From Patescibacteria group bacterium (GTDB taxonomy: Bacteria > Patescibacteriota > Minisyncoccia > Portnoybacterales > GWB1-42-6): a stretch of 64,000 bases of DNA. The translations under genes and the position numbers were made by a program. This document shows, piece by piece, positions 12,261-64,000 of this stretch. The stretch covers positions 210,183 through 274,182 of the forward strand of contig JAKLIA010000002.1 of assembly GCA_022709865.1 (NCBI GenBank), given 5' to 3'. Under the pieces are notes generated by a model that worked only from the letters and a program-made list of their open reading frames with translations, was not told where the DNA came from and searched no databases. How positions within the stretch are numbered: the first letter of the stretch is position 1; every line of letters starts with the position of its first letter.

Positions 12261-12264
12261 TCTT

Positions 12265-14135: not shown

Positions 14136-14199
14136 TATAAAAAATTAATTTATTATCAAAATTATTGTCTTGTTTAGTATAACTATACCGAAAAATAGG

Positions 14200-16548: not shown

Positions 16549-16576
16549 TAAAAGTATAAAATATTTTAGGCTTTTC

Positions 16577-36067: not shown

Positions 36068-36068
36068 T

Positions 36069-37295: not shown

Positions 37296-37328
37296 TAAAA
37301 TAGTCTAAAATTGCGCGCGCCCAAGACA

Positions 37329-38766: not shown

Positions 38767-38776
38767 AATAAGAGAG

Positions 38777-41581: not shown

Positions 41582-41587
41582 AATATC

Positions 41588-46260: not shown

Positions 46261-46470
46261 TTATTTTATTTCATCGAACAAACGGTTTATTTCCTGCTTT
46301 ATGCCCGGTATTTCTTCGTAGGGCATACCGTTAACAAATAAAAAAGTTTCCAGCTCTTTGCCAGCAACTTTTTTCTCGTTAAAAAGAGTTATGGTGGCCA
46401 AAAATAACTCGTCCTTTTTTAGCTTTTTTATTTTTGACCAAAAATCTTCTTGTATATTTTTTTTCTTCAT
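46261..46470 (-). CDS. Small 69-aa protein inside the radical SAM array (candidate RRE/chaperone or substrate-related peptide)
   Basis: MKKKNIQEDFWSKIKKLKKDELFLATITLFNEKKVAGKELETFLFVNGMPYEEIPGIKQEINRLFDEIK; tightly packed between two radical SAM genes with 3-nt and 27-nt spacers. Confidence 0.35.
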   Translation of the reverse strand: MKKKNIQEDFWSKIKKLKKDELFLATITLFNEKKVAGKELETFLFVNGMPYEEIPGIKQEINRLFDEIK

Positions 46471-48958: not shown

Positions 48959-49824
48959 AATGTTTTTAGCATTGAATTATTATCATAAATCGTATATTTT
49001 TCAAGAATATAACATGATTTTTCTTTGCACACCTCCGGCTTGCTGTATAAAGAAAAGTTATTTTTTAAGATATTGCCCAAATAACCATTTTTGCTTCTAG
49101 ATCCCGGATTACAACGGTACGCCTCACCATAAGGCGATAAAAGAAAAAACTTATACCCGCAATCGCACATTTTCCCCTCAGTATTAAGCAGTTTTTTAAA
49201 GTTTATTGTTTTTTTAATCCCTCTATTCACCCGCCTTATTGCTTCCTGCTGGCTTTTTGAGTAATTATAATACTGATCATCCTTTGTCCTTAATGGCGCC
49301 ATTTTAAATAGAATATTAGCCTCCCTGAACATCCGGTAGACTTCTTCCAGATAATTTATTTTCTCAGGCAAAGCAACCGCACTAACAAAAAAATTGTTGA
49401 AGTTTGGATATATTTTTTTAAGACTTAATATTTTCTTAAGAAAAATTTCCGGATAGTCATATTCTAAATGCAAGGAAGCATGAAATAACACTAATTTCCC
49501 TTCGGTAATTTTAAAAAATTTTTCTATTTCTCTTGCTGGCGCCGAAAAATTAGTAACAACAGAGATTGTATATCCTGATTTAATTAGGCTTTTCACTATA
49601 TCAAAAAAATCCGGATGCAAAAAGGGCTCACCCCCGACAAGGTTAAAGTTCCATCCCCGAGGAATATGCCTTTGGAAGCCTTTTATAAAAAATTTATATT
49701 TTTCTACTTTATGGCCAGCATTCTTACTTTCATTGCTAACATAACAATAACCGCATCTATAATTACAGCTATCATTAATAACCCAATCTACCTTTCCTGG
49801 GATATTTTTTTTATTTACACCCAT
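48955..49824 (-). CDS. Radical SAM protein (second subfamily, tandem duplicate A)
   Basis: CNYRCGYC, VGGEPFLHPDF, and C-terminal CDCGYKF...C...C.C; the 3' ~110 nt are near-identical to the next gene. Confidence 0.7.
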   Translation of the reverse strand: MGVNKKNIPGKVDWVINDSCNYRCGYCYVSNESKNAGHKVEKYKFFIKGFQRHIPRGWNFNLVGGEPFLHPDFFDIVKSLIKSGYTISVVTNFSAPAREIEKFFKITEGKLVLFHASLHLEYDYPEIFLKKILSLKKIYPNFNNFFVSAVALPEKINYLEEVYRMFREANILFKMAPLRTKDDQYYNYSKSQQEAIRRVNRGIKKTINFKKLLNTEGKMCDCGYKFFLLSPYGEAYRCNPGSRSKNGYLGNILKNNFSLYSKPEVCKEKSCYILEKYTIYDNNSMLKTL

Positions 49825-49865
49825 ATATTTTTATAATCGCGGCAAAAAATAATAAAAAATTATTG

Positions 49866-50744
49866 CTATAAATATAATTCTTGGAATTGATCAATCGTAT
49901 ATTTTCCAAAACAATAACATGATTTTTCTTTGCACACCTCCGGCTTGCTGTATAAAGAAAAGTTATTTTTTAAGATATTGCCCAAATAACCATTTTTGCT
50001 TCTGACCGATGGGATACAACGAAAAGCTTTGCCGTCTGGATGCAAAAATACATACTTATACCCGCAATCGCACATTTTCCCCTTAGTATTTATTATCTTT
50101 TTAAGATTACTGGCCGACCTTATTGTTCTGCCTGATTTATAATTTATCTGCCTAATTATTTTCTGTTCATCTTGAGAATATTTATAAAATTGGTTTTTTT
50201 TATCTCTTAATAATAACAGCTTAAAAAACGGGATACCATTTTGCTGAAATTTTTCACTAATTTGCTTTAAATAATTCAGTTTCATAGGCAAGGCAACCGA
50301 ATAAATATTATAATTCTGAAAATCAGGGAAACTTTTTTTAAGTTCCAATATTTTCTTAATAAATGGATCTGGATCGGAATGCTCCAGATGGAGGCTAATA
50401 TTAAAAAAAACTAATCTCTTATTTGTTATTTTTAAAAATTTTTTTAAATCGCTTATCGGCGCAGAAAAATTAGTAAAAACAGAAATTGTATACCCCGCCT
50501 TAACCAGCTTACTTGTTATATTTAAAAAATCGGGGTGGGAAAATGGTTCCCCGCCCACAATATTAAAATTCCAGCCCCTTGGTATGTGTTTTAAAAAATT
50601 TTTTAAATATAAATCAAAAAATTTCATATTATAACCAGCCGATTTAATTGAATCATCAATACTGCAATAGCTACAGCGATAATTGCAGCCATCAGTAATT
50701 GACCACTCTACCATTCCTGGAGTATTTTTCTTATTTATTCTCAT
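49866..50744 (-). CDS. Radical SAM protein (second subfamily, tandem duplicate B)
   Basis: CNYRCSYC, VGGEPFSHPDF, and a C-terminal Cys cluster; paralog of 48955..49824. Confidence 0.7.
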   Translation of the reverse strand: MRINKKNTPGMVEWSITDGCNYRCSYCSIDDSIKSAGYNMKFFDLYLKNFLKHIPRGWNFNIVGGEPFSHPDFLNITSKLVKAGYTISVFTNFSAPISDLKKFLKITNKRLVFFNISLHLEHSDPDPFIKKILELKKSFPDFQNYNIYSVALPMKLNYLKQISEKFQQNGIPFFKLLLLRDKKNQFYKYSQDEQKIIRQINYKSGRTIRSASNLKKIINTKGKMCDCGYKYVFLHPDGKAFRCIPSVRSKNGYLGNILKNNFSLYSKPEVCKEKSCYCFGKYTIDQFQELYL

Positions 50745-50750
50745 AATTAG

Positions 50751-51428
50751 CTAATTGCACGTAATTAGTTTAGGCTTAGACTCGCTACCTTCAACGCAAA
50801 CTGCAATTTTATATCCCGGATAAAGATCATACACCCAAAAGCGCCAACTTTGTTTTTTAAATCTTGAATATAATTTAATTTTATTATTCCTAAGCTCAAA
50901 ATAAAAATTTTTTAACGAATAAGATAATCCCCTGCCTTTGGCCTTAATAAGGGATTCTTTGAGTGTCCAGATTTGATAAAAACTTTCTAGCTCTTTGCCT
51001 TTCTGCGAATGCACAAATTTCGTTTCTTTTTTATGGAAATAATCGCCAGCAATTTTAAGGTCGATCGGTCTCATTTCTTCAATATCAATCCCAACTCTGC
51101 TGTCAGCGATAGCCAGCACAACCCTTTTACCAGAATGCGATAAATTAAAATCGAAATTTTTATTTTTTGGATAGACTAACAATGGCCGCCCGTATTTATT
51201 TGTTTTAAAAACTATATCTTCGGCTTTAATTTTAAGTTGCGTCGCAATTATTTTTCTAGTTAAATATTTGCCGGCAATATATAAATTACGGCTATTTTTA
51301 TCCTTAAAAAAACCCGCCTTTTTTATTTCTTCCGCCGATAAAGCTTGCAATTTATTCTTATTTTTTTTGTCATTAATTTTATGAACAAATATTTTTAGCA
51401 TAAAATATCGGCTATTTAATTCAAACAA
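50751..51428 (-). CDS. Sfp-type 4'-phosphopantetheinyl transferase
   Basis: FNLSHSG, GIDIEEM and WTLKESLIKAKG motifs; 225 aa. Confidence 0.8.
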   Translation of the reverse strand: MFELNSRYFMLKIFVHKINDKKNKNKLQALSAEEIKKAGFFKDKNSRNLYIAGKYLTRKIIATQLKIKAEDIVFKTNKYGRPLLVYPKNKNFDFNLSHSGKRVVLAIADSRVGIDIEEMRPIDLKIAGDYFHKKETKFVHSQKGKELESFYQIWTLKESLIKAKGRGLSYSLKNFYFELRNNKIKLYSRFKKQSWRFWVYDLYPGYKIAVCVEGSESKPKLITCN

Positions 51429-52492
51429 CTTTTTATAATTTTACAAACCTTCTCAACTCTTGTTTTGCTTAAACCGCAATAAAGCGGCAAACAGATCATT
51501 CTTTTGGCTATATCCTCCGCAACAGGAGCAGCTTGTTCGCCAAAAAAAGTAAAAGCATTTAATGAGGGGTAAAAAAACCTCTCTGGAAAAATATTATTTT
51601 TATGTAGCTGCTTTAGCGCCTTTAATAATATGGCTTCGGATGAAAAAATAACGGGATAATATGAAAAATTATAACTTGTATTTTTCTTTATTTTAGGTTT
51701 TTCAAGGTTCGTATTATTTAATAATTTATCGTAAAGATGCGTCCACTTTTTTCTGTCGTTAATAATTTTATGTGTTTTAGGCAAAATTGTTAAACCCAGG
51801 GCAGCGTTTAATTCTGAACTTTTAGCGTTGATACCTATTGAAACAAACTCTCTTTTGTCCGATAAGCCAAAATGCCTCATTTGCTTGATCTTTTCTGCGA
51901 TCTTATCATTACCGGTTATAATTGCCCCGCCTTCAGCCATATGAAATAGCTTAGTTTCATTAAAACTAACAGTTGAGATGTCTCCAAAATCAAAAACTGA
52001 TCTGCCTTTATATTTAACCCCAAAAGCATGCGACCCGTCATATATCACTTTTAATCTATATTTTTTTGCTATTTGATGTATTTTTTCCATTTCACAGGGA
52101 TAACCAAAAAGATGCACAGGAAGAATCGCTTTGGTTCTAGGGGTAATTTTATCTTCTATTTTTTTAGGATCAATCGTTAAGTTCATTTCATTTATATCTA
52201 CAAATACCGGCACACATCCTTGCCACTCAATTGCTGATGGAGTCGCAATAAAAGAAAGCGGCGCGGTAATAATTTCTCCTTGCAAATCCAAAGCTTTAAT
52301 GGCCAATTGAATAGCCATAGTCCCGCTGCTTACTAAAAACAAATGCTTTACGCCTAGATACTTTTTTAATTTAACTTCCAATTCTCTGACCATAGGACCA
52401 TCATTTGCCACTTGTTTATTGCGCCAAATTCTACGAAGATATATGTTATATTTCTTGAAATTGGGTAGGAAAACTTTGACTTTATTGTCCAT
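51416..52492 (-). CDS. DegT/DnrJ/EryC1/StrS family PLP-dependent (sugar) aminotransferase
   Basis: SSGTMAIQLAIKAL and SFNETKLFHMAEGGAI (PLP lysine region); 358 aa. Confidence 0.8.
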   Translation of the reverse strand: MDNKVKVFLPNFKKYNIYLRRIWRNKQVANDGPMVRELEVKLKKYLGVKHLFLVSSGTMAIQLAIKALDLQGEIITAPLSFIATPSAIEWQGCVPVFVDINEMNLTIDPKKIEDKITPRTKAILPVHLFGYPCEMEKIHQIAKKYRLKVIYDGSHAFGVKYKGRSVFDFGDISTVSFNETKLFHMAEGGAIITGNDKIAEKIKQMRHFGLSDKREFVSIGINAKSSELNAALGLTILPKTHKIINDRKKWTHLYDKLLNNTNLEKPKIKKNTSYNFSYYPVIFSSEAILLKALKQLHKNNIFPERFFYPSLNAFTFFGEQAAPVAEDIAKRMICLPLYCGLSKTRVEKVCKIIKSCLN

Positions 52493-52504
52493 AATAGATT
52501 CCGG

Positions 52505-55500
52505 TTATAAATTAGAAATCTTAACTGTTGGATGCGATATGACTCTTTCTAATAACTTACCGTATTGGCTAAGCCATTTTTTTATAGTTTTTTGTTTAAA
52601 TAAATTTTTATTATAAAAAAAACTAATAATCATTCTGTCTTCCTGCTCGACAATAGCGCATTTAAGATCGAATTTATTATGCTCAGGATAAACAGGAAGG
52701 TGATCAATATCAATTCCGTTAAGCTTAAAGTTTATTCTATTTTTGCTAGCTAGTTGAAAGAATATTTCGGATGAACGTTTTTTGTCATCAATAGGCTTCT
52801 TTAATTTTTCTATTAATCTACTGTAAGAATAATTAGAATTAGCCAAACCATCAATAACCGTTTTATTGCTTTCTGCCAACGCCTCAATAAAGCTCAACTT
52901 TCCTCTCAAGTTGCTTCTAAGGGCTATTATTGTTATAAATAGCCCTATCAAAGATTGTAATTCTTCGCTGTTACGATTAGTGCACGGGGTTTTAATTATA
53001 AGGTCTCTTTGCTTTGTAGTCTTATAAAGAAAAACGCTGAATACAGAAAACATAAAAGCAAAAAGAGTAACATTCCGCTCGCCACAAAACTGCGCAATCT
53101 TTTTTATCGCTATTTTATTTATTTCTATTGATTCTTTATTAACTAAATTCTTTTTATTTGCCCCCATTGCTTTATCAACCGGTAACTCGACAATCGGGAA
53201 ACCATCTTTAAATTGATCCAGCCAGTATTTTTCCTGTGATTCCAAAATAATTTTGCTTTCCGCTGAATTTTCGTAATTAGCATAATCTTTGTATTGTATT
53301 AATAAAGGCTTCAGAGGGCTTAATCTTTTTTCAGTAAAAGCGTTGTATAAAACCGATAGTTCTCTGAAAAAAATATCCAAAGACCAAAGATCGATAATCA
53401 AATGATGGAAAACAAAAATTAAAAATGATTCCTTATTTTTAAGCTTGATCAATACCAATCTAAATAAATTGCCTGATTCTAATTTGAATTTATGCTCAAT
53501 AATTCCTTTTATTATCAAGTTTAAATTATTTTTTTTATTGTGCTTTTTGTTCGTTAGATCAATAATCTTAAAAAAATCTTCCTTAGCCGACCTTCTAATT
53601 ATTTGCATCGGTTCGTTATCAATTTCTTTAAAATTAGTCCGCAGAGATTCATGCCGATTAATAACTTCTTTTAGCGCCTTACTAAATAATTCTGCGTTTA
53701 AATTACCAGTTAGCTTTAATAATAAAGATTCATTAAGCAGTGGGTTTTTTTCAGCCTTATTAAAACGCCAAAATTCAACTTGAGACCTAGATAGATTATA
53801 ATATTTTTTTTGTTTTAGCAGCTTGGTATTATTTTGATTAAATACACGATCTTTTTCTTCGTTAATTTTTTTTGCCAATTCCTTTATTGTTGGATCCCTA
53901 AAAATATCCCTAATTGCAATATCTTTATTTATAATATGTTTAATTTTTGATTTCACCTGAATAACATTCAGCGAGTTTCCCCCGATTTCAAAAAAATTAT
54001 CATTAATACCAATATCCTTGATACCTAGTACTTCCTCCCAGACTATAGCTAGTTGTTTTTGGATTTCGGTCTCGGCCGGTGCATATGGGGTTAACATTTC
54101 GGGGCGAGGCCGAAAAACAGAAGAAATTGATGTTCTTTGATTATTTTTTGTTTTAAATAATAAATTACTTGTTTGGGTTTTATTTACTGCCAATATCACT
54201 TTCTGGCCCGATCCTCTGTTTAGGCCTAAAAGATTAATGTGGTCGTATCCATTGGCAATTAATAACTCTTGCCATTTAGCGGCTGTTAAATTAGGAGAAT
54301 ATTTTATCCTATTTTCTTCATCTTCATAAAGCCACCAGCCTTTTGTCAGGCCAAAAGTCATCGTAGCGTATTCATTAAAATCAGTATTCTCGTTAATAAT
54401 CAATAAGCCACCCGGCTTAAGGAGCCCGTTTATTTGATTAAGAGACTTACCGATATTTTTAGTCGCATGAATAATATTAGAAGCTAAAACAATATCAAAA
54501 GCAGGACAATTAAAGCCCTGGCCTACCAAGTCTTTTTCTATATCCAAAATCCGGTAATCAACAAACCGATATTTTTGACTAAACCTTTTTTTTGCTTGCC
54601 CAATAAGCTCCTTACTAATATCAGTTAAACAAAAGTTTATTTTATTTTTTTTACTTTTAATACCTTCAAGGATTGTGCTAGAAGTAGCTCCTGTGCCCGA
54701 ACCTATTTCCAAAATCTCTATTTTTTTCTCCGGAAATTGCCTGATTATTTCAACAAGATAATGCTTTAAAACTTTGCCGATAAATCTAAACTGCTCCTTG
54801 GCTGTTTTTCCTTCCTTATAAAAATTATCCAGCAATTTCGTTCTGCCTTGATTAAAAATAATTTCCGTAGCTATTTTTTTCCCGGTTAAAACTTCCGGGT
54901 AGCCCTCAAGGCAACTCAAAAAGAATCTCAAAGCAGCCGGATTATTTTTAACCAACCGTATTTCTTCTTCTTTTATTTTTCCCTTAGCCGCTTCTTGAAC
55001 GCAAACTTTATCTGTAGTAAAAAATATATCAGATTTTTCTTTTAGATATCCTCCTTTAACAAAAATATAAAGCAAAGCATCCAACAATCGGTAATACTCT
55101 GGAATAATGCCGATTTTTTTTATAATGCTGGCTTTATTGTATTTTTCTCTTGCTACTTTAAACAAGCCTAAACGCTGAAAGACTCTAAGCAAAGACTGGC
55201 TGGCAAATAAAGAAAAATTCCTGGACATTTTTTGTTGCCGCTCAATCAATTTTTGGCTCCCTAATCCCGAACATCTTTGCAAAAGCGACAAACGAAACAA
55301 GGCTAATTGCAAAATATTAAAAAGGATCGTTTGTTTTTGTTTTTCTAAATCGATTTCGGCAACCATTACTTGGTTTATTTTGGCAGACAAAACCCTACCT
55401 AACGCACCAATTCCATCCTGGCAACAAATCGAGTACCCACCTAAAAAAGCATCTTTATTGTGGCCCCAATAGCCCCAATTGATTATTTTTACCGGCAAAC

Positions 55501-58500
55501 CCTTGGCGTATTTTAAATACAAAGCGAAGTTATCTTCAAATGACGAAGCAGCAACATAATTGCTCCGGCCGACAGACCCAATAAGAGAAACGACTGAAGA
55601 ATAAAACAACAAAAAATCCAAAGGCTCTTTTTGTTTTTCGATGATTGCTTTATATAGGGAAAAACATCCGCTAACTTTAGATTGAAAAACTTTATCAGAC
55701 TGGCTTTCCTTTGTGTTTTCAAATGAACCTTCATTCATTTCTCCTGCTGCATGAATAATGCCATTTATTTCGCCGTATTTTTCTTTAGTAAAGCTCAATG
55801 CTCCGCGCATAGCGCTTGTCCTAGCGACGTCAGCTTGGAAATAACTGCCGTGTCCGCCTAATTTTTCTATTTCGGCCAATTTTCCATCTATTTCTTTATT
55901 TTGGTTTTTTCTACCCACCAAGACTATATTAGCTTTGGCTTCTACGGCAAAATGTTTCGCTGTTTCAAAACCGAGATTGCCCGTTCCGCCGATTATTAAA
56001 TAGGTGCCGCCGCGCTTCAACGCCACAGCTTTTTGATTATTATCTTTAAGCAAATCAACGGATTCAATCCGTTTTACATATGTTTGGCTACCCCTTATAG
56101 ACAATTCTGAGCCAGATAATTCAAAAGCCGGGTCCACCAAAAGGTCAAACCTAAAAGCATTGCGGCTTTTTCTGCTTTCTAATTCTTCCCTTTTTATATC
56201 TATACAGCTGACAATAATCGAAGGATTTTCCCGGGCTATTGCTTTAGCCAAACCGACAATGGATGAAGAATAAGGATACAAATTTGCAATACTGTCAGAA
56301 TTTGATAAATAATTTAAATTATTGGTAAGAATCTTCAATTCTAAAAAGTCCGCTCCGGAACACCCCTTCTTTAAACCCGACGGGCCAACAGCTTTCATCA
56401 ACTTTAATAATGACCCTGCTCCATAATCTTGAACTTTTTTCAATTCCGACTCTGACTCAACTTCTGGTTTGTCGTTTAATTGCAGCCCCCCTAAATGATA
56501 GATGGCTGAAACAGGCGATAATCGCCGCCAAGCTTTTTCATAATCTTTCTGATCCTTAAAATCTATTTCAAAAATATCCGACGACAATTTTTTGAATCGA
56601 TTTCCTAAGATTATCTGCTTCACTCCGATCTTTTTCCCGACATAATACTTAGCTATCCTTTTTGCCAAACAAAAATCATTCTGATGACTAACGATCAAAA
56701 CGCTGCCCTGCTCCATCATGATGCCCTTATATACTTTTTCTGTTTCCCGCCAGACTGGTTGATAAAATATTTTTTCAGATATCTGCTCCGCTCTTTCAGT
56801 TTCAACTGATTTGAGCAAAAACTGGCTATCGATTATTTTATTTTCCTCTGGCCAATATCTCTGCCGTTCAAAAGGATAGGTTGGCAGAGGGATTCTAAGT
56901 CTTCGTTCGTTCTGGTAAAGAGACAACCAATCAACCCTGGCTCCCTGAAGCCAGAAAGAAGAAAGCCTGGTTAGGTCCTGGGTGGTCTGGGCCTGCTTAG
57001 TCGCTTGGTTAACTTTCTCTAGGTCCTTCACGCTGTCGCTGGCCTGGCCCAAGGAGAAGCTGTTCTTTAATCCTTTGATTGCTTCCTTCAGGTTATTCTT
57101 CACTGCTACTGCCAAGCGGTGGTTGAACTCCGCTCTCCCTACTTGCAGGGTGTAAGCCACGTCAGCCAGGTTGAGGTTAGGGTTAGCTTCTAGGTGCTTA
57201 ATGAGATTAAGTCTCATCTGTTCCAGGGCGGTTTCTGTTTTGGCAGAGAGGATTAGAAGCTGTTGGTCTTGGCCTTTATCTGAGGGGATGGGAGTGGGAG
57301 CTTCTTCTAAGATGACGTGGGCGTTGGTGCCGCCGATGCCAAAAGAGCTGACTCCGGCTCTAAGAGGAGTCTCTGGGTTAAGCCGCTTCCAGGGGGTAGG
57401 TTTGGTTACTACGTAGAAGGGGCTATTCTTAAAGTCTATCTTGGGATTGGGTTTGGTATAGTTGATGCTGGCTGGGATAAGCTTATGCTGCAAAGCTAGG
57501 ACGGTCTTGATGAAACCGGCTACGCCGGCAGCGGTATCGGTATGGCCAATGTTGGATTTAACTGAACCGAGGCCGCAGTATTGTTTCTTGTCTGTGGCAA
57601 AGGCTCTAGTGAGAGCTTCTACTTCTATTGGGTCGCCAAGCTTGGTAGCGGTGCCATGGGCTTCTACGTAGGTGATGGTTTCGGGAATCACCTGAGCAAG
57701 ATTTAAAGCATCTTCAATTACTCTTTTTTGCCCTTCAATGCTGGGAGCAGTATATCCTATTTTATTATGACCATCATTATTAATAGCCGAACCTTTAATA
57801 ACTGCCAAGATATTATCTCCGTCAGCCACGGCGTCTGCCAAGCGCTTTAAAACCACAACTCCGAGGCCGTCGCTAAAAATCGTGCCGCTAGATTCGGAAT
57901 CAAAAGCCCGGCAATGCCCGTCAGAAGACAAAACAGCCCCGTCCTCAAAAACATAACCGCGTTTTTGAGGATAAGCTATGCTTACCCCACCGGCCAAGGC
58001 AATATCCGTCTCCCCAGCCAACAACCCCTGGCAAGCATAATAAATTGTCACTAAAGAAGTTGAGCAGGCGGTATTAATAGAAACAGCCGGACCGGACAGA
58101 TTAAGGTCATAAGCAATTTTTGTTGATAAAAAATCCTTATTAATGGCTTGGTTTATTTCCAGCTTGTTGAGCCGATTGCCGCCAGCCTGATTATAGCTGA
58201 TTATCTTGTTTTCCCAATTAGTATTATTTTTTGCTCCGGCATAAACACCGATTAGCCCATGATATGCTTTTGGATCGCAACCGGCATTTTCCAGCGCCTC
58301 CCAACAGGATTCATAAAACAGCCTGATCTGCGGATCAGTGGCAATGGCTTCATTAATATTTTTGCCGAAAAAATCAGCCGCAAAATATTCAACGCCGCCA
58401 ATCAAACCCCTAGACCGAACATAATTAGTTTTTTTTATCTCTTCTTCCTTTTCTCCGGCCAAAATCAATTCTTCAGGACTAAAAACAGTTAAGGTTTCCC

Positions 58501-58639
58501 TGCTTGATTTTAGATTTTGCCAAAACTCCTGGCCGCTGGCAGCGCCCGGAAACCTTAATGAAAATCCGATGACCGCTATTTGCAAATCCAACGAATTCTC
58601 TGTTTTATTTTTTCCCCTGTCTGATCCTTTTGATTTCAT
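52505..58639 (-). CDS. Hybrid PKS/NRPS megasynthase: KS - KR - methyltransferase - carrier protein - condensation domain (AT-less module)
   Basis: KS motifs INTACSTSLV, EAHGTATKLGDPIE and NIGHTDTAAGVAG, followed by the post-KS linker PTYPFERQRYW. KR motifs GTYLIIGGTGNLG and YSSV...SNYVAASSF. Methyltransferase LEIGSGTGATS. Carrier motif FFEIGGNSL. C domain HHLIIDLWS. 2044 aa. Confidence 0.85.
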   Translation of the reverse strand: MKSKGSDRGKNKTENSLDLQIAVIGFSLRFPGAASGQEFWQNLKSSRETLTVFSPEELILAGEKEEEIKKTNYVRSRGLIGGVEYFAADFFGKNINEAIATDPQIRLFYESCWEALENAGCDPKAYHGLIGVYAGAKNNTNWENKIISYNQAGGNRLNKLEINQAINKDFLSTKIAYDLNLSGPAVSINTACSTSLVTIYYACQGLLAGETDIALAGGVSIAYPQKRGYVFEDGAVLSSDGHCRAFDSESSGTIFSDGLGVVVLKRLADAVADGDNILAVIKGSAINNDGHNKIGYTAPSIEGQKRVIEDALNLAQVIPETITYVEAHGTATKLGDPIEVEALTRAFATDKKQYCGLGSVKSNIGHTDTAAGVAGFIKTVLALQHKLIPASINYTKPNPKIDFKNSPFYVVTKPTPWKRLNPETPLRAGVSSFGIGGTNAHVILEEAPTPIPSDKGQDQQLLILSAKTETALEQMRLNLIKHLEANPNLNLADVAYTLQVGRAEFNHRLAVAVKNNLKEAIKGLKNSFSLGQASDSVKDLEKVNQATKQAQTTQDLTRLSSFWLQGARVDWLSLYQNERRLRIPLPTYPFERQRYWPEENKIIDSQFLLKSVETERAEQISEKIFYQPVWRETEKVYKGIMMEQGSVLIVSHQNDFCLAKRIAKYYVGKKIGVKQIILGNRFKKLSSDIFEIDFKDQKDYEKAWRRLSPVSAIYHLGGLQLNDKPEVESESELKKVQDYGAGSLLKLMKAVGPSGLKKGCSGADFLELKILTNNLNYLSNSDSIANLYPYSSSIVGLAKAIARENPSIIVSCIDIKREELESRKSRNAFRFDLLVDPAFELSGSELSIRGSQTYVKRIESVDLLKDNNQKAVALKRGGTYLIIGGTGNLGFETAKHFAVEAKANIVLVGRKNQNKEIDGKLAEIEKLGGHGSYFQADVARTSAMRGALSFTKEKYGEINGIIHAAGEMNEGSFENTKESQSDKVFQSKVSGCFSLYKAIIEKQKEPLDFLLFYSSVVSLIGSVGRSNYVAASSFEDNFALYLKYAKGLPVKIINWGYWGHNKDAFLGGYSICCQDGIGALGRVLSAKINQVMVAEIDLEKQKQTILFNILQLALFRLSLLQRCSGLGSQKLIERQQKMSRNFSLFASQSLLRVFQRLGLFKVAREKYNKASIIKKIGIIPEYYRLLDALLYIFVKGGYLKEKSDIFFTTDKVCVQEAAKGKIKEEEIRLVKNNPAALRFFLSCLEGYPEVLTGKKIATEIIFNQGRTKLLDNFYKEGKTAKEQFRFIGKVLKHYLVEIIRQFPEKKIEILEIGSGTGATSSTILEGIKSKKNKINFCLTDISKELIGQAKKRFSQKYRFVDYRILDIEKDLVGQGFNCPAFDIVLASNIIHATKNIGKSLNQINGLLKPGGLLIINENTDFNEYATMTFGLTKGWWLYEDEENRIKYSPNLTAAKWQELLIANGYDHINLLGLNRGSGQKVILAVNKTQTSNLLFKTKNNQRTSISSVFRPRPEMLTPYAPAETEIQKQLAIVWEEVLGIKDIGINDNFFEIGGNSLNVIQVKSKIKHIINKDIAIRDIFRDPTIKELAKKINEEKDRVFNQNNTKLLKQKKYYNLSRSQVEFWRFNKAEKNPLLNESLLLKLTGNLNAELFSKALKEVINRHESLRTNFKEIDNEPMQIIRRSAKEDFFKIIDLTNKKHNKKNNLNLIIKGIIEHKFKLESGNLFRLVLIKLKNKESFLIFVFHHLIIDLWSLDIFFRELSVLYNAFTEKRLSPLKPLLIQYKDYANYENSAESKIILESQEKYWLDQFKDGFPIVELPVDKAMGANKKNLVNKESIEINKIAIKKIAQFCGERNVTLFAFMFSVFSVFLYKTTKQRDLIIKTPCTNRNSEELQSLIGLFITIIALRSNLRGKLSFIEALAESNKTVIDGLANSNYSYSRLIEKLKKPIDDKKRSSEIFFQLASKNRINFKLNGIDIDHLPVYPEHNKFDLKCAIVEQEDRMIISFFYNKNLFKQKTIKKWLSQYGKLLERVISHPTVKISNL
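56850..57245. repeat. Intra-cluster repeat: post-KS region duplicated between the two PKS modules
   Basis: 57061-57245 is ~98% identical at nucleotide level to 63821-64000. The adjoining 56850-57000 is ~80% identical to 63610-63760. Confidence 0.8.
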
Positions 58640-60509
58640 TTAGCCTGTTTTTGAAAATTGTCCGCTGTTTTATTTTTTCCACACCAATATCGACCCGTCC
58701 CGATAAAAACTCCTGAAACGATTTTATGGTGCCATATTCAAACATCTTAATTACCGGCGCCGCCACGCCCAGGCGCTTCTCTATCTTTGAAAAAACTTTA
58801 ATTAGCTTTAATGAATTGCCGCCCAGGTCAAAAAAATTATCATTAACCCCGATCTTTTTTACGCCCAAAACTTCCTGCCAGATAGCAGCTAATTGTTTTT
58901 CCAGCTCTGTTTTTGGAGGTTGATATTTATTCTTGCTGACAAGCTGGTCTTTATCTGGCTCAGGTAAAGCTAATAAATCTAGTTTACCATTAACATTCAA
59001 GGGAAACTTTTCTAGCTCAATAAAAAAAGCCGGCACCATATAATCCGGTAAAATAGCTTTCAGGCGTTTTTTTATTTCATCTCGGCTTATTTTTTTATTT
59101 TTTCTGACAACATAATAGGCGATGAGATAATTTTCTTCCGTTTCCTTGCCCTGATTGTCTTTTTCTTTTTTTGCCACGACCAACGAACTTTTTATTTCTG
59201 GGCATTTATTTAGTTGGGTGTTTATTTCTCCGGGTTCTATGCGATTGCCCCTGATTTTAACCTGATGGTCAGCCCGAGAAAGATAAACGATATTCCCGTC
59301 TACCAATCTTTTCACCAAATCACCGGTCCGGTATATCCTTTCCCCTTTTATAAAAGGGTGAGGCAAAAAAACTTCTTTAGTTTTTTCCGGCAAGTTAAGA
59401 TAGCCCTTAGCTAAACCTCTGCCTGAAATGTAGAGTTCGCCAGGAACGCCCGGAGGCAAAAGCTTTAAGTTCTTATCTAGAACAAAAACTTTATTGTTTA
59501 AAGTTGGTTTTCCTTCAACGATTACCTGAATATTCTTATTAAAGGGTACCGGGCTAAATAAAGTCATGCCTGAACACTCAGTTTGGCCATAAGCATTGAA
59601 CAGCTTGATCTTAGGATAACGGCAATAGAACCGGCTGGCTGTGACAGTTCCTAACTTTGAGGCAGCAATAAATACTTCTTTTAAAGATTTTAACGGGTAT
59701 TTTTTCTTTGGATTTTCATCAATAATTTCTAGATAGGCTTCCAGCAGCGGAACACTTATTTCCAGAACATTAACTCTGGTGTCATCTATTTTTTTAAACA
59801 AAAGCTCTGGATTGTTAATCGTCCCCTCATCAAAAAGAACCAGCTTGCCGCCAAAAGCCAAGGCTGAATATATTTGCAACGGAGTCGTAATAAACCCGAT
59901 CGTGCCATTATGGCACAAAACACTCCCAGAGTTAATTCTTAGCATTTTTTGGCGATGAAAAAGCTGATTAACAATTCCCTGATGATACAGCATTACTCCC
60001 TTGGGCCGGCCGGTGGAGCCAGAAGTATAAAGAATATAAGCCAAATCATCCGGCTTTATTTTTCTATTTAAATCCGACTTATCAATTTGCTTTTCATTAG
60101 GCTCTTTTTTATCCAGCTCAAGGACCAAGTGCCCCTTCTTTTTTCCAAGTTTCTGTTCTACTTGTTCCCGCAACTGAGCAGAAGTAATGATAATGCCAGC
60201 CTTGGTGTCAGCCAGCATAAAGTCAATTCTTTCTTGAGGATAGTCTATGTTTATCGGCTGACTAATGCCGCCGGCTTTAAGTACTGCTAGGTCCGCCACA
60301 ATAAAAAACATCGAGCGATTAAGCATGACCCCAACATAATCCCCCTTTTTTAATCCTTGGCTAACCAGCTTTTTGGCCAAGCAATTGGCCAGACCATTTA
60401 ATTCCCGATAAGTTATTTTCTGGCCCTTAAAATCCAAAGCAATATTATTTGGATTTTTTTTAGCTTGCTCTTCAAATAGCTGATGGATCGTCTTGCGGAG
60501 GAAAAGCAT
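58605..60509 (-). CDS. NRPS adenylation domain plus peptidyl carrier protein
   Basis: A3 motif YILYTSGSTGRPKGVM, A7/A8 motifs YRTGDLVKRL and VKIRGNRIEPGEI, and PCP motif FFDLGGNSL; 634 aa; start overlaps the upstream gene end. Confidence 0.85.
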   Translation of the reverse strand: MLFLRKTIHQLFEEQAKKNPNNIALDFKGQKITYRELNGLANCLAKKLVSQGLKKGDYVGVMLNRSMFFIVADLAVLKAGGISQPINIDYPQERIDFMLADTKAGIIITSAQLREQVEQKLGKKKGHLVLELDKKEPNEKQIDKSDLNRKIKPDDLAYILYTSGSTGRPKGVMLYHQGIVNQLFHRQKMLRINSGSVLCHNGTIGFITTPLQIYSALAFGGKLVLFDEGTINNPELLFKKIDDTRVNVLEISVPLLEAYLEIIDENPKKKYPLKSLKEVFIAASKLGTVTASRFYCRYPKIKLFNAYGQTECSGMTLFSPVPFNKNIQVIVEGKPTLNNKVFVLDKNLKLLPPGVPGELYISGRGLAKGYLNLPEKTKEVFLPHPFIKGERIYRTGDLVKRLVDGNIVYLSRADHQVKIRGNRIEPGEINTQLNKCPEIKSSLVVAKKEKDNQGKETEENYLIAYYVVRKNKKISRDEIKKRLKAILPDYMVPAFFIELEKFPLNVNGKLDLLALPEPDKDQLVSKNKYQPPKTELEKQLAAIWQEVLGVKKIGVNDNFFDLGGNSLKLIKVFSKIEKRLGVAAPVIKMFEYGTIKSFQEFLSGRVDIGVEKIKQRTIFKNRLNEIKRIRQGKK

Positions 60510-60695
60510 AAAAATTAGCTGATGATTTTTTAGATAAAATATTTATCTGATTGATTTTGGCTTTATTTATGCGGTGTTTTTGCCTTAAATGTTTATTAAA
60601 TATAATGCATTTTATCGGCAAAGTAAAGAAAAAAAATACCCCGATTAATTAAAATCCCCGGGAGCGTTGCGCTTCCAGGGATTTGGTTGATTTTT

Positions 60696-61778
60696 TTATC
60701 TAATAAGATAGAGCTTTTTAAAAACTTCGGTGGTTTTGGGATTTTTGGCCAAGGCGATTATCGCCGTCACCACAATGAAAAACACAATTATCGGCCATCT
60801 GAAGTTTGCCATATTGGTCCACATGTTGGCCATAGTAGTATTGTTGATGCACGGCCAGGAAAAAATAATTACCACTGAAATTATCGGCCCGGCATATAAA
60901 CTTTTAATGCCAAACCTTCTGGCAACATAACCCACGCCAGAAACCGCTGAATCTATGGTGCTGGTAGCCAAGGCGACCATAATAACAAGAAAAGCTATTC
61001 CGAGCACCAAGTTCTTGCTAAAATACAAGCCGGCCAAAAAGACAAACAGCATATAGACGGCAAAGAATAACCCGCCCCAAAGAGTGATCTGAAAAATGCT
61101 TTTGGCTTTGGCATCATATTTTTGCCATTGATGGCCCGCCGCCAACGCACCGGTGATAATGCCGATAAAAGCGTAGGGCGCCCAAGCCATTCCTCCCGGC
61201 ACTGCCCAATTTAGCTGGCTATTCACCTGGCCGCTAGCCATAACAAACGAAGCTCCAGCAATAAAGATCGCTGAGACCATCTGCACGGTAAAATAACCTA
61301 GATCAGTCAGCATCAATATTTTGAGCCCGCCCTTATTCACATACCAAACGATAAATAGCCCATAAACTACGACCGCCCAAATTGCAGCCTCTCTTGGCAA
61401 GAAGCTATAAGTGATAACATCTGTTCCTCCGCCAAGACCGGTTAAAACAGCCTGCATGTTAAGGGTGATGGCAAAATATTCTATCACCGCAAAAACCAGC
61501 AGCATCAGAGTGAACTTTGGCCAATGGCGACTATCGGGTAGAAACCTCCTGACGAAACCGACCAACGGAATCGCCAAAATATTGCCCAGCATCCAAATGA
61601 GGAAAGGGGCAATCCCCTTTTTTGCCATAATGGACATACCCACCGCCATTGAAACCCCCCAACTCCAATCAGCCGCTACGCTAACTCCAACCCGCCAATC
61701 AGGAAACTTTGACAGATCGTCAACTTCTCCCTTTCTTTTGATTAAAAAGCCTATTATTTTTTCAAAGAACGCCTTCAT
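60696..61778 (-). CDS. Polytopic membrane permease (transporter, family uncertain)
   Basis: 360 aa with ~10 TM helices; embedded between NRPS/PKS genes. Confidence 0.35.
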   Translation of the reverse strand: MKAFFEKIIGFLIKRKGEVDDLSKFPDWRVGVSVAADWSWGVSMAVGMSIMAKKGIAPFLIWMLGNILAIPLVGFVRRFLPDSRHWPKFTLMLLVFAVIEYFAITLNMQAVLTGLGGGTDVITYSFLPREAAIWAVVVYGLFIVWYVNKGGLKILMLTDLGYFTVQMVSAIFIAGASFVMASGQVNSQLNWAVPGGMAWAPYAFIGIITGALAAGHQWQKYDAKAKSIFQITLWGGLFFAVYMLFVFLAGLYFSKNLVLGIAFLVIMVALATSTIDSAVSGVGYVARRFGIKSLYAGPIISVVIIFSWPCINNTTMANMWTNMANFRWPIIVFFIVVTAIIALAKNPKTTEVFKKLYLIR

Positions 61779-61867
61779 TTCTTCCTCCTTTTATGTCTAT
61801 ATTTTTAAAAAAATTGAAGATATTAAACTATACCGCCTACCTAAACACTTGGCAAGCCTAAACTAGC

Positions 61868-64000
61868 TTATCTATACTTTCCAGAAATCAGCCTCTTTCT
61901 TTCTTTTTCATTAAGCAGGTCAAAGTCCTTTATTTTTGTTTCCGGGCCATTTGCAATTTGATCTAAAATATTAGCGTAATATCCGAGCCACCTTTTGATC
62001 GTTTCCTGATAAAAAATATCGGTATTAAACTCACAGCCTAGGATCAAAGCGCTGTCATCGTCCATAATGCGAAGCTTGATGTCGAACTTAGAAGTATTAG
62101 TGGCATAAATCCTTTTCTCGACTTTTATTTTTGGCAAGTTTAACATTTTCATGTCAACCTTGTCGTTCTGCATTACCACGTTGAATATTGAATTGCGCCT
62201 AGCGCCCACAGCCGCGCCCAATTTTTCTGTTAATCGATCCAAAGGATAATCTTTATTGGCCAGGTCGTCTGAAATATTTTGCTTAACCCGGCCCAGCAAA
62301 GTTAAAAATCTTTCCTCTTCATCGAGCTTGTTCCTCGAGGCTATATTATTAAATAAGATGCCGACTGTTTTTTCCAGCTCCGGATAGTCCCGGTTAGTTG
62401 CCAAAGTGCCAAGTATAATATCGGTTTGGCCGGTTAATTTATAAATAAACACATTAAAAGCGGAAAAAAGCAAAGCAAACAAAGTAGAGCCGGTTTGGTT
62501 AGCCAATTGCCTTAGCTTGTTAACAGTCGCCCCCCTCAAAACAGACCGCTCTAATCGGCCATTATAAGTTTGGCTAGCTGGCCTAGTCTTATCCAGGGGC
62601 AAATCCAAAATTGGCAAACTGCCAGACAGCTTTTTTAACCAATATTTTTCTTGCTGCTGCATGCTTTTTTCATTATCTTCAGAACTTTCCCAGCAAGAAT
62701 AATCTTTATATTGAATTGTGTTTTGAGGTAATTTTGCCTTTTTGTTCGCCAAAAAAGAGCTGTATAATTCCGATATTTCCGCCAAAATTATATCAGCTGA
62801 TTTTCCGTCGGATATAATATGGTGCATAACCATCATTAGCGTGTGTTTTTTGGCCCCAGCCTTTATCAGCCTAAACCTGATCAGCCGGTCCGATTCCAAT
62901 TTAAAAGGCTGGTTTATTTCTTGTTGAATGATTTTTTCTTCCTTTTTATTAGTCTCCTTTTGTTTTTTACCGCTCAAATCAAGATAGATTAGATCCGGTT
63001 CCTGTTTTTCATTGACCACTTGCTTTGGCTCTCCATTTATCGCTTTAAAATTAGTGCGGAGGATTTCGTGCCTGCTGATAATATTTTTTATCGCCTCGCT
63101 TAATAAAGCGCTCTCCAACTTTCCCAACAACCGGCAAACAACAGAAATATTATAAAAAGGAGAGTTTGGCTCCATTTGGTATAAAACCCAAATGCGTTTT
63201 TGGGCATGAGACAACGGATAAAACTCGGCTTTAAAAGCCGGAGCGATAAAAACTCTTTTGTTCGATCTATTTTTTTCTATTATTTTTGCTAAAAGGTTTA
63301 TTGTTGGGTGTTCAAATAGTTTGGCCACAGGCATATTAATATTTAAAGCCTGCTTGATCTGGTTAGCTACTTGCACCAGATGCAACGAATTTCCTCCTAT
63401 CTCAAAAAAGTTGTCATTGATGCCTATATCTTTTATGCCCAAGACCTCTCGCCAGATCTTAGACAGCATTAATTCTAGCTCCGTGCCGGGAGACTTAAAC
63501 TGAATGGCTAGGTCGGGCCTAGAATGCAAAACAGGAACCGAAACAATAGGGCTAGCTTCTTTTGTTGGCTGCTCTTCCTTTTTGGCCAACCCGATTCCAG
63601 TCGCTCCTGGCCAATATCTCTGTCTCTCAAAAGGATAGGTTGGGAGAGGGAGTCTCCTTCGTCTTTCGTTCTGGTAGAGTTTAATCCAATCGATCTTGGC
63701 TCCTTTGAGCCAGAGGGAGGAGAGAAGGTTTGGGTCTTGGGTGGTCTGGGCTTGGCTGGTTGCTTGGTGGTGAGAATTGAGACTAGTAATATCTTCTTTG
63801 ACCTGGCTGGTTTTGGCTTTGTTCTTTAATCCTTTGATTGCTTCCTTCAGGTTATTCTTCACGGCTACTGCCAAGCGGTGGTTGAACTCCGCTCTCCCTA
63901 CTTGCAGGGTGTAAGCCACGTCAGCCAGGTTGAGGTTAGGGTTAGCTTCTAGATGCTTAATGAGATTTAGTCTCATCTGTTCCAGGGCGGTTTCTGTTTT
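61868..64000 (-). CDS. PKS/NRPS protein, 3' portion (post-KS linker - ACP - condensation domain); 5' part lies beyond the window end
   Basis: The open frame continues past 64000 (…KTETALEQ precedes the annotated Met and matches the KS C-terminal region of the 2044-aa protein). Contains PTYPFERQRYW, ACP motif FFEIGGNSL and C domain HHIISDGKS. Confidence 0.8.
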   Translation of the reverse strand, partial: KTETALEQMRLNLIKHLEANPNLNLADVAYTLQVGRAEFNHRLAVAVKNNLKEAIKGLKNKAKTSQVKEDITSLNSHHQATSQAQTTQDPNLLSSLWLKGAKIDWIKLYQNERRRRLPLPTYPFERQRYWPGATGIGLAKKEEQPTKEASPIVSVPVLHSRPDLAIQFKSPGTELELMLSKIWREVLGIKDIGINDNFFEIGGNSLHLVQVANQIKQALNINMPVAKLFEHPTINLLAKIIEKNRSNKRVFIAPAFKAEFYPLSHAQKRIWVLYQMEPNSPFYNISVVCRLLGKLESALLSEAIKNIISRHEILRTNFKAINGEPKQVVNEKQEPDLIYLDLSGKKQKETNKKEEKIIQQEINQPFKLESDRLIRFRLIKAGAKKHTLMMVMHHIISDGKSADIILAEISELYSSFLANKKAKLPQNTIQYKDYSCWESSEDNEKSMQQQEKYWLKKLSGSLPILDLPLDKTRPASQTYNGRLERSVLRGATVNKLRQLANQTGSTLFALLFSAFNVFIYKLTGQTDIILGTLATNRDYPELEKTVGILFNNIASRNKLDEEERFLTLLGRVKQNISDDLANKDYPLDRLTEKLGAAVGARRNSIFNVVMQNDKVDMKMLNLPKIKVEKRIYATNTSKFDIKLRIMDDDSALILGCEFNTDIFYQETIKRWLGYYANILDQIANGPETKIKDFDLLNEKERKRLISGKYR
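63610..64000. repeat. Second copy of the post-KS repeat
   Basis: See 56850-57245; the two copies were aligned by eye on the sequence. Confidence 0.8.

Follow-up and report, generated by a model that had tools for sequence, protein, structure and literature searches.

The stretch of DNA analyzed here (64 kb, referred to as the window) ends in PKS and NRPS genes set among what appeared to be the genes of a small-genome bacterium. Two questions arise: whether these genes belong to that bacterium, and whether their PKS modules truly lack AT domains, as the initial annotation had proposed. The locus proved to be a real PKS-NRPS hybrid of unusual kind and considerable size, derived from cis-AT modules and located in a CPR genome. 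The best explanation of the whole, which we consider likely, is that the window carries the downstream half of a large, cis-AT-derived hybrid type I PKS-NRPS cluster of Candidatus Portnoybacteria.

Pfam searches over the window ORFs gave domain calls with scores far above gathering cut-offs, and all cluster genes were on the minus strand. The first synthase gene (61868-64000) is truncated and encodes a remnant of the KS-AT linker, an ACP (PP-binding, 1.3e-15; motif GGNSL) and a Condensation domain (3.5e-107) with an intact HHIISDG motif. Because this ORF runs off the end of the window, its KS must lie beyond position 64000. Its product was 100% matched by a protein named Candidatus Portnoybacteria (P0001). 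The stand-alone NRPS protein at 58605-60509 is an A-PCP (AMP-binding, 2.4e-80, and PP-binding), and its A domain matched the solved A domains of LgrA and GrsA in the PDB (E 1e-97 to 1e-218). By comparison with a reference fragment, position 235 of this domain is tentatively taken to be Ile, not Asp. As assembled, the next gene (52505-58639) encodes a 2044-aa synthase composed of KS (3e-61 and 9e-44), KS-AT linker, KR (6e-43), methyltransferase (3e-16), ACP (PP-binding, 3e-11) and Condensation (4.5e-84) domains. Its KS (KS_b) retains Cys-His-His, and its terminal C domain has the motif HHLIIDL. A DegT/DnrJ/EryC1 sugar aminotransferase (51416-52492; DegT, 2.6e-87), which fell under every NCBIfam equivalog cut-off, and an Sfp/HetI-type 4'-phosphopantetheinyl transferase (PPTase; 50751-51428; ACPS, 2.7e-18; AASDHPPT_N, 5e-13) follow. 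Thus, every domain arrangement of the initial annotation was recovered by Pfam: the PPTase, DegT, A-PCP, KS-KR-cMT-ACP-C and truncated [KS]-linker-ACP-C proteins of a hybrid cluster, with both C domains C-terminal and no A domain in cis. The KS, carrier, C and A domains reside in multidomain proteins, as in type I modular PKS/NRPS hybrids, and the Sfp-type PPTase (HetI-like) is dedicated to the cluster.

The context genes named in the initial annotation were found in the window: gatA, genes for type IV pili, nusG, and an rplK that has no rplA beside it. The best matches of the host GyrB were from Staskawicz-, Falkow- and Kerfeldbacteria and from 'Patescibacteria' (59-63% identity), the remaining listed matches being at or below 57%. 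The L11 90% cluster held Patescibacteria names only, and identical proteins in NCBI, as well as P0121, P0241 and P0242, were labelled Candidatus Portnoybacteria. By these sequence comparisons, the host of the cluster is a CPR bacterium, Candidatus Portnoybacteria.

That the cluster was instead mis-binned or chimeric, originating in a larger-genome bacterium such as a cyanobacterium, Acidobacterium or Firmicute, is suggested by the GC content of part of it (0.30-0.34 at 47.9-54.8 kb, compared with 0.44-0.48 in housekeeping genes) and by its nearest KS, AT and C homologues, which are found in large-genome phyla at 33-58% identity. Physical linkage makes this explanation extremely improbable. In at least two assemblies, made independently from different samples, the cluster tail shares a contig with CPR housekeeping genes: a 172-kb JGI contig (Ga0116241_10000204) carries KR-cMT-ACP-C, DegT, PPTase and radical-SAM genes, all 100% identical to the window, and a 267-kb contig from a different sample, with an identical L11, starts by coordinate arithmetic near window position 57208. 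A chimeric join was thereby refuted. In addition, NCBI accession numbers run consecutively on one contig from L11 through the radical-SAM gene at 35126 to DegT, a separate 4.5-kb contig (L090) covers the junction between the last radical-SAM gene and pilM at the downstream edge of the cluster, and GC3 in KS_b, the membrane protein and most radical-SAM genes matches that of the host. When KS-linker-ACP-C and AT-KR-DH-ACP were searched, no relative other than their own copies exceeded 39% identity, and there is thus no obvious donor contaminant. The window contains no rRNA gene. The largest contigs with these genes were 267-287 kb, and two pieces from one SPAdes assembly had similar coverage (9.7x and 10.8x).

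The claim that the cluster is AT-less did not survive examination of other assemblies of the same organism. No ORF of the 64-kb window contained an AT domain by Pfam. Two extra segments, AT-KR-DH-ACP-KS(Cys->Ser) and KR-DH-ER-ACP followed by another KS, are carried by public contigs whose sequence outside a repeat (R, described below) matches the window at 100% identity. The first is found on contig L006, within a single ORF exceeding 3306 aa (linker-AT-KR-DH-ACP-KS-linker-KR-MT-ACP-C), and on a 4.9-kb contig (P0121); in both, the AT (Acyl_transf_1, 2e-44) comes after the same KS linker. The second is on contig L092 and leads into KS_a. The closest KS relatives by best match were cis-AT PKSs (55-58% identity), many with AT after the linker. 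The free-standing trans-AT gene that the initial annotation proposed to seek beyond the window was found in none of the ORFs of the window, L006 or L092.

Assignment to the trans-AT PKSs (bacillaene, pederin and rhizoxin type) was considered and is not supported, given the cis AT after the same linker in this organism: not all elongating modules are without one. As in these systems, some modules of the locus have no AT but keep the flanking/linker subdomain of the KS, processing domains follow a KS that is non-elongating (Cys->Ser), and an in-line C-methyltransferase and NRPS modules occur. It differs from them in having no discrete AT gene in the three regions named above and in the identity of its nearest KSs.

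Taken together, the two extra segments indicate an assembly line of at least 4-5 KS domains with one cis-AT, larger than the window shows, and leave the window's module order unsupported. The KS inventory, read from domain motifs, numbers four or more different domains and comprises KS_a and KS_b, both with Cys-His-His (TACSTS/HGT/NIGH); KS_x, in which the catalytic Cys is replaced by Ser, the sole exception among the KS motifs inspected; and at least one more implied by the count of entries into and exits from R. KS_x is probably non-elongating. Besides these, the line has KR-DH and KR-DH-ER reducing sets, a C-methyltransferase, three or more carrier domains, two C domains (HHxxxD), one A-PCP and the cis-AT noted above; GGNSL, the carrier motif, is found three times, and the carrier serines are present.

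The uncertainty in module order is due to R, a repeat of about 430 nt spanning the KS end and the KS-AT linker. One copy (R2) lies at 57061 to about 57480, and the window terminates within another (R1), whose tail (63820-64000) is 98% identical to 57061-57241. Near-identical copies come after several KS domains, and the linker leads into AT in one copy and straight into KR or ACP in others, so recombination at the linker gave rise to the modules that lack an AT. R interrupts every public short-read assembly: six contigs of the same organism (L001-L005, L007) end in it, the 267-kb contig above starts within it, and R was thus shown to fragment or mis-order such assemblies. One public contig, L006, passes through R along another path than the window does. 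Furthermore, the final 55 nt of L092 connect to window positions 63727-63673, which makes a fourth exit from R and shows the assembly graph to be more tangled than any simple model. The window's own order therefore depends on how its assembly crossed R. Of the claim of two AT-less modules, the domain calls within the window stand, the second module starting past its end, and the architecture hinges on that crossing.

The order in which we place moderate confidence is ...KS-linker-ACP-C, membrane protein, A-PCP, KS_b-AT-KR-DH-ACP-KS_x-KR-cMT-ACP-C, DegT, PPTase, radical-SAM genes... Indeed, L006 sets AT-KR-DH-ACP-KS_x directly upstream of, and in frame with, KR-cMT-ACP-C. Between about 57480 and 41416 this contig and the window agree at 100% identity, but over the KS at only 56-82%. 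If this order is correct, AT-KR-DH-ACP-KS_x would be missing from the window through assembly collapse or a true in-frame deletion between two R copies. The SNPs in R were compared at five sites, three of them readable in the AT-leading copy. The window copy agrees with the AT-leading copy at SNP4 and with the KR-leading copy at SNP5, as a crossover between the two would give; the reverse derivation would need an extra change. Gene conversion among R copies could, however, scramble such patterns.

The window may instead be correct as assembled, with AT-less KS-ACP-C and KS_b-KR-cMT-ACP-C modules served in trans by a discrete AT or by a single upstream cis-AT. The order would then be KS-AT-KR-DH-ACP-KS_x-ACP-C, membrane protein, A-PCP, KS_b-KR-cMT-ACP-C, and L006 would be a collapsed or deleted version. 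In the window, the ORF reads through in frame without interruption, and its reads must include a k-mer that connects SNP4=C with SNP5=A. Public records list a 279-kb contig bearing the membrane protein as well as the L11 gene (called at 130 aa), which, together with the direct passage from KS_b to KR, means that the window path may be real in its strain. Relatives with KS-linker-ACP-C also lack an AT domain (P0002, P0008, P0010, P0046), and no AT was seen in the visible flanks of the related contig L008. Nevertheless, we regard this arrangement as unlikely. The KS_b-to-KR junction across R2 was seen in no public contig found by look-ups and is contradicted by L006, which physically connects KS_x to KR-cMT-ACP-C; deriving the L006 repeat copy from the window copies requires the extra change at SNP4; and a trans-AT gene is absent from the regions searched. 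The arrangement would also leave an active KS_b without an AT, yet place the Cys->Ser KS_x just downstream of the AT-containing module (AT-KR-DH-ACP-KS_x).

For the favored order, in which KS_b precedes the AT, domain logic suggests the following route. The first C domain would join a reduced polyketide on the ACP to an acid on the stand-alone A-PCP, which probably supplies the acceptor for the upstream gene's C domain as a split C/A-PCP module. KS_b would then extend the chain, the last module would reduce and C-methylate it, and the terminal C domain would release it onto an acceptor with an amine or hydroxyl group, which could be an amino sugar made with DegT. Two glycosyltransferases (GT1 and PMT_2) and ten radical-SAM enzymes encoded downstream may act as tailoring enzymes or link the product to the envelope. 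The predicted product is probably a glycosylated lipopeptide-like molecule.

It could be argued that the PKS/NRPS genes are a decaying relic of transfer and that the functional unit is the radical-SAM/glycosyltransferase array. The lost Cys of KS_x and the HHLIIDL motif of the terminal C domain, where HHxxxDG is expected, would fit such decay, and fatty-acid and malonyl-CoA metabolism are generally absent from CPR genomes. We find this very improbable, as the long ORFs are uninterrupted (2044 aa, more than 3306 aa and 634 aa), Cys-His-His is kept in KS_a and KS_b, the carrier serines and dedicated PPTase are retained, and the sequence is 100% conserved across at least five metagenomes. It is normal for functioning assembly lines to contain non-elongating KSs and variant motifs in their C domains.

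The downstream array had been overlooked, and the cluster boundaries as first drawn were too narrow on both sides. The cluster extends down to about 35.1 kb through ten radical-SAM genes, GT1, PMT_2 and DUF483. After the PPTase lie a conserved pair of small radical-SAM proteins (292 and 289 aa; 48955-50744), a GT1/GT4-type glycosyltransferase (47876-48958) and a 445-aa radical-SAM protein (46497-47834) whose best NCBIfam matches were AhbD/NirJ-type radical SAM/SPASM families, each scoring below cut-off. These are followed by an HxsC-like radical-SAM protein (45338-46258), a DUF483 protein (44413-45351), a PMT_2 membrane glycosyltransferase (ArnT/PMT-like, GT-C; 42591-44387) and five tandem HxsC-like radical-SAM genes (37831-42601, at 41588, 40601, 39645, 38777 and 37831). 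The region 35126-37793, encoding an Ig-like 154-aa protein, a 408-aa protein without assignment and the last HxsC-like radical-SAM protein, with pilM next, is the probable downstream edge. HxsC or HxsC4 of the His-Xaa-Ser system was the best NCBIfam match for seven of the ten radical-SAM proteins (E 1e-18 to 1e-53), but none of the ten reached a curated cut-off, the best scores being 53-181 bits against 267.9 (HxsC) and 500 (HxsC4). No HxsB-type match stood out for any of them in NCBIfam, the one small ORF read (69 aa, 46261-46470) had no His-Xaa-Ser repeat, and no partners of an Hxs system were seen.

The known systems closest to the cluster include the cis-AT PKS-NRPSs of cyanobacteria and Acidobacteria (curacin/jamaicamide type). 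Shared features are a KS with a CurL/RhiE-type KS-AT linker; AT, KR, DH, ER, cMT, ACP, C, A and PCP domains; an Sfp/HetI-type PPTase; and a C domain at the end of a PKS protein that passes the chain to an NRPS module. The nearest database proteins were PKSs of Nostoc, Scytonema, Moorena and Pyrinomonadaceae, at just 33-58% identity (best KS, 55-58%). Unlike those systems, here KR comes before DH (and ER) in each of the two reducing segments, several KS-linkers have no AT after them, a terminal C domain stands in for a thioesterase in the portions seen, the host belongs to the CPR and ten radical-SAM genes are attached.

The 360-aa protein encoded at 60696-61778, between the truncated synthase and A-PCP genes, had been called an embedded permease. 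It is a polytopic membrane protein with at least eight hydrophobic segments and no Pfam or NCBIfam match, and it may plausibly act as a permease. Its family is rare (104 representatives among 1.84e9 proteins) and adjoins KS-ACP-C in related clusters. One such cluster was found on contigs L008/L095 (ENA ERZ27250635 k141_2578044; JGI Ga0247842_10000006, 560 kb) and L093, and in L008 runs A-PCP, C-A-PCP, KS-ACP-C, membrane protein, A, A-PCP-C, PPTase, rSAM, rSAM, GT1, B12-rSAM. The order KS-linker-ACP-C, membrane protein, A ... C, PPTase, rSAM, rSAM, GT1, rSAM is kept, with the PPTase syntenic on all three contigs. Its proteins are 36-58% identical to those of the window (membrane protein, 47%; radical-SAM pair, 37-44%; GT1, 54%). 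The related cluster is purely NRPS except for one KS, has A and A-PCP-C where the window has A-PCP and KS-KR-cMT-ACP-C, lacks DegT and carries the B12-rSAM in place of the 445-aa protein at 46497. Its GC content is low (0.35-0.36). Synteny with this cluster suggests that the low-GC core of the window (terminal C, PPTase, two radical-SAM genes and GT1) was probably acquired horizontally.

All sizeable ORFs between 35 kb and 64 kb lie on the minus strand. The synthase region encodes an Sfp-type PPTase (50751-51428) and a DegT aminotransferase (51416-52492), both with Pfam scores well above threshold, followed by a 2044-aa protein containing KS, KS-AT-linker, KR, methyltransferase, ACP and C domains (52505-58639), an A-PCP protein (58605-60509), a 360-aa protein without a family match (60696-61778) and an ORF that runs off the end of the window, in which Pfam and translation identified a linker, ACP and C domain (61868-64000). 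The domain calls of the initial annotation (PPTase, DegT, KS-KR-MT-ACP-C, A-PCP, linker-ACP-C) were thus reproduced by Pfam with scores far over threshold. The active-site motifs of the KS of the 2044-aa synthase (KS_b) were intact (TACSTS, HGT, NIGH), as were the carrier motif GGNSL in three carrier domains and the C-domain motifs HHIISDG and HHLIIDL. The adenylation domain of the A-PCP protein matched LgrA and GrsA (1AMU, 6e-97) in the PDB and is, judged by its sequence, a true NRPS adenylation domain. Amino-acid-activating A domains carry Asp235. In a tentative alignment, the position that we take to be equivalent, assigned from a PheA fragment, is apparently Ile, and the A domains of a related cluster (L008) have Val or Ile there; a residue other than Asp is a tentative hint that the substrate is a keto acid, a hydroxy acid or some other acid.

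No AT domain was present in any ORF of the whole 64-kb window, and the modules had been described as AT-less. The end of the window (63820-64000) is 98% identical to 57061-57241, and both belong to a repeat, R, of approximately 430 nt (about 57061-57480, delimited by alignment to other contigs) that codes for the end of a KS and the KS-AT linker. Five public contigs of 6-7 kb (L001-L005) are 100% identical to window 57259-64000 with both ends within R, and a further contig, L007, begins within R. An exact 50-mer from the core of R had no match in a metagenome contig collection lacking the relevant samples. Contig L006, of the same organism, crosses R differently, with a single ORF placing linker-AT-KR-DH-ACP-KS upstream of the same KR-cMT-ACP-C. 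The AT-KR-DH-ACP-KS segment was also found on a separate 4.9-kb contig of a Portnoybacteria MAG (protein P0121). The KS fused after AT-KR-DH-ACP in L006 (KS_x, 3845-4880) is only 56-82% identical to KS_b at the DNA level until the two converge in R. Its catalytic Cys is replaced by Ser (DTSSSSS) with both His kept, and these motifs make a non-elongating or transfer role probable. A 4.6-kb contig of the same MAG, L092, encodes KR-DH-ER-ACP followed by a new gene opening with another KS (KS_a), 66% identical to KS_b, which passes through R and exits by a fourth route. R is therefore entered from KS_a, KS_b and KS_x and left toward AT, ACP-C, KR and the L092 linker; since exits outnumber entries, at least one further KS must exist. 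The assembly line thus holds a cis-AT and no fewer than 4-5 KS domains, and reaches at least 10 kb beyond the window end. With the cis-AT located on L006 and P0121, the AT-less label fits only the part retained on this contig, and the feature is largely an assembly effect. Repeats of this kind inside megasynthases cause module order and content to be reported wrongly in short-read MAGs, and single-contig calls such as "AT-less" should be confirmed in other assemblies or with long reads before they are trusted. In both reducing segments the KR precedes the DH (and ER), as AT-KR-DH-ACP (L006 aa 58-1260) and KR-DH-ER-ACP (L092 aa 1-925); the canonical order in modular PKSs is DH-(ER)-KR.

Two module orders use each segment once. 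Order B, KS-ACP-C, membrane protein (the 360-aa protein), A-PCP and KS_b-AT-KR-DH-ACP-KS_x-KR-cMT-ACP-C, would make L006 and all small contigs correct and leave the window short of 4.9 kb. In order A, KS-AT-KR-DH-ACP-KS_x-ACP-C, membrane protein, A-PCP and KS_b-KR-cMT-ACP-C, the window would be correct and L006 would have skipped 6.7 kb. The copies of R were compared at five SNPs. The window copy carries SNP4 (C) of the AT-leading copy and SNP5 (A) of the KR-leading copy, the pattern that a crossover between these two copies would give. Order A requires one extra change to derive the L006 copy (A,C,T,A) from the window copies, because T at SNP4 is otherwise confined to the KS_a copy. Order B is the neater one in biochemical terms too, in that the active KS_b is paired with the AT and the Cys-to-Ser KS_x leads an AT-less processing module. 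Over the unique 340 aa, all pairs among KS_a, KS_b, KS_x and the KS of P0002, a related KS-linker-ACP-C protein, were 49-53% identical, and this comparison gave no orthology signal for module order. Order B is preferred by a modest measure and order A is rather improbable, with polymorphism or a more complex arrangement taking up what remains. The k-mers used by an assembler must be present in its own reads, and the two samples therefore truly differ at the R site, so that the difference could stem from a real in-frame loss of a module between strains as well as from simple collapse. A 55-nt overlap of L092 with window 63727-63673 was considered as proof that KS_a precedes ACP-C and was rejected because L003 and L092 have similar coverage and only one edge can enter the segment 57260-64000 at full depth. 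These 55 nt could represent a further linker copy altered by gene conversion.

A chimeric join, named beforehand as the result that would overturn the cluster, was not upheld, as the cluster is joined to CPR genes in independent contigs. The 172-kb JGI contig Ga0116241_10000204 is 100% identical to window 41416-~57480, and a Logan contig spans the junction between the radical-SAM genes and pilM. An identical L11 (140 aa) occurs on Ga0116154_10000035 (267 kb) from a different sample, the first base of which, if it is colinear with the window, corresponds to window ~57208, inside R and thus within the stretch in which other contigs break as well. Exact matches to pilM, GyrB, GatA and a 130-aa version of L11 were absent from the protein records, probably because start codons had been chosen differently. 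Proteins identical to those of the window are named "MAG TPA ... [Candidatus Portnoybacteria bacterium]" at NCBI and their accessions run in order (L11, HRY52512; radical-SAM at 35126, HRY52545; DegT, HRY52562). Among GTDB species genomes, GyrB had its best matches in CPR lineages, namely Candidatus Staskawiczbacteria (63%), "Patescibacteria group" (62%), Kerfeldbacteria (60%) and Falkowbacteria (59%); other matches were at most 57%, with non-CPR phyla mostly at 49-55%.

The span first given to the cluster (50751-64000) proved too narrow, as genes continue downstream of the PPTase toward pilM, with which the type IV pilus genes begin at ~35.08 kb. Ten minus-strand radical-SAM genes, starting at 49866, 48955, 46497, 45338, 41588, 40601, 39645, 38777, 37831 and 35126, are interspersed with genes for a GT1 glycosyltransferase (47876-48958, minus strand), a PMT_2/ArnT-like GT-C enzyme (42591-44387, minus strand), a DUF483 protein, an Ig-like protein and a 408-aa protein. 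None of the 10 radical-SAM proteins reached a curated NCBIfam cut-off, and 7 of them resembled HxsC/HxsC4 below it; the cut-offs were likewise unmet by the DegT, GT1, PMT_2, DUF483, 408-aa and membrane proteins. A 69-aa ORF (46261-46470), also called as a gene in L006, sits between two radical-SAM genes. It was the only small ORF read and is no obvious RiPP precursor, having neither repeats nor a Cys/His/Ser-rich core. The Ig-like protein, which is small and Ig_Rha78A-like, is encoded at the edge of the array (37329-37793).

The tailoring genes were assigned to the synthases because both occur together in a related locus. This locus (L008/L095 and the partial L093) encodes A-PCP, C-A-PCP, KS-linker-ACP-C, a membrane protein, A, A-PCP-C, PPTase, two radical-SAM proteins, GT1 and a B12-radical-SAM protein. 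Its membrane protein is 47% identical to that of the window, and for the remaining proteins identity to the window counterparts is 36-58%. The 360-aa membrane protein has at least eight hydrophobic segments and belongs to a rare family, with 104 representatives among 1.84 billion proteins. No relatives were found in GTDB species genomes, so that the window's genome and the related cluster are not among the species representatives. Members at least 43% identical lie beside NRPS/PKS genes in 4 of the 5 loci retrieved. Two members (L094 4441-15608 and L096 9938-21103; 43-44% identical), the former with a radical-SAM/SPASM gene upstream, adjoin a stand-alone AT, A-ACP and an ACP-KS-DH-KR PKS and represent a second kind of PKS cluster with the same rare membrane protein. 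In distant members (35-38% identical; L098-L103, e.g. L099 767-4637), the stop overlaps the start of the next gene, which codes for a HisRS-like paralogue of 438 aa lacking the anticodon-binding domain; full-length HisRS comes after the paralogue in at least two loci (L099 and L102). The membrane protein and the HisRS-like paralogue are a conserved pairing. An acid-activating enzyme is the common neighbour of the family, which would fit a candidate substrate importer.

Housekeeping genes have a GC content of 0.44-0.48, R of 0.50 and L008 of 0.36. The block containing GT1, two radical-SAM genes, PPTase, DegT and C/ACP/cMT (47.9-54.8 kb) has a GC content of 0.30-0.34 and GC3 of 0.24-0.35. This block is largely the part syntenic with the low-GC L008, DegT and cMT having no counterpart there, and this points to a horizontally acquired core followed by module shuffling. 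When the KS-linker-ACP-C and AT-KR-DH-ACP segments were searched against a large protein collection, no relatives above 39% identity were found besides their own copies.

Domain logic predicts a pathway in which reducing PKS modules would assemble an acyl chain, and the C domain ending the KS-ACP-C protein would condense it with the unit on the stand-alone A-PCP as a split module. Extension by KS_b and processing by KR and cMT would follow. No TE was in sight among the parts of the assembly line, and the chain would be released by the terminal C domain, with an amine or hydroxyl as acceptor. The DegT, GT1 and PMT_2 enzymes suggest that an amino sugar or polyprenyl-linked sugar is involved, and the radical-SAM array suggests extensive C-H chemistry.

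Biosynthetic clusters are seldom reported in CPR and are mostly RiPPs (PMC7298704, PMC12153355) or terpenes. Sharrar et al. (2020) recorded three CPR clusters, none of them PKS or NRPS (PMC7298704), and 16 of 21 CPR clusters were RiPP-related (PMC12153355). The literature searched contained no description of a PKS or NRPS cluster from CPR. The sequences of the present cluster are already public and auto-annotated. Its enzymology is of a known kind; it is set apart by the CPR host, the KR-before-DH order, the terminal C domain, the radical-SAM array and module variation driven by repeats. In so reduced a genome, a PKS-NRPS of several modules with this much radical-SAM tailoring is a genuine surprise for CPR biology. 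It raises the questions of the source of malonyl-CoA and of the amino or keto acid, which the host may supply, and of what so costly a molecule does for an episymbiont. A speculative joint reading, to which we give little credence as a whole, is that a host-dependent CPR of ~1 Mb would spend at least 45 kb, several percent of its genome, on one pathway, with ~29 kb inside the window and at least 10 kb more upstream. The horizontally acquired megasynthase, with at least five KS modules, the rare membrane protein, 10 radical-SAM proteins, three sugar enzymes and adjoining type IV pilus genes, would make a surface-anchored or secreted glyco-lipopeptide for host-cell attachment or killing. The near-identical KS-linker repeats would act as an active recombination system by which modules are gained and lost between strains, the window and L006 being two such variants.

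Elsewhere in the window, a second gene group lies at 11250-17674. Its products are a polyprenyl diphosphate synthase of IdsA/GGPP-like type, two proteins of the radical-SAM/SPASM kind (442 and 376 aa), a UbiA-family prenyltransferase of 555 aa and a Zn-dependent dehydrogenase resembling threonine dehydrogenase. None of these proteins met an NCBIfam cut-off; a possible role is in an isoprenoid-lipid or quinone-like pathway, which would be out of the ordinary in CPR. In the part of the window that includes 4392-4937 and 2986-4178, the reported absence of rplA next to rplK was borne out, rplK being followed instead by genes for dCMP deaminase and thymidylate kinase, so that L1 is missing from its customary position. 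A 646-aa protein encoded among the pilin genes (21817-23757) is a possible pilus-associated adhesin. It carries a type 1 thrombospondin repeat and an Ig domain of Rha78A-like type, along with weaker matches of PKD-like kind.
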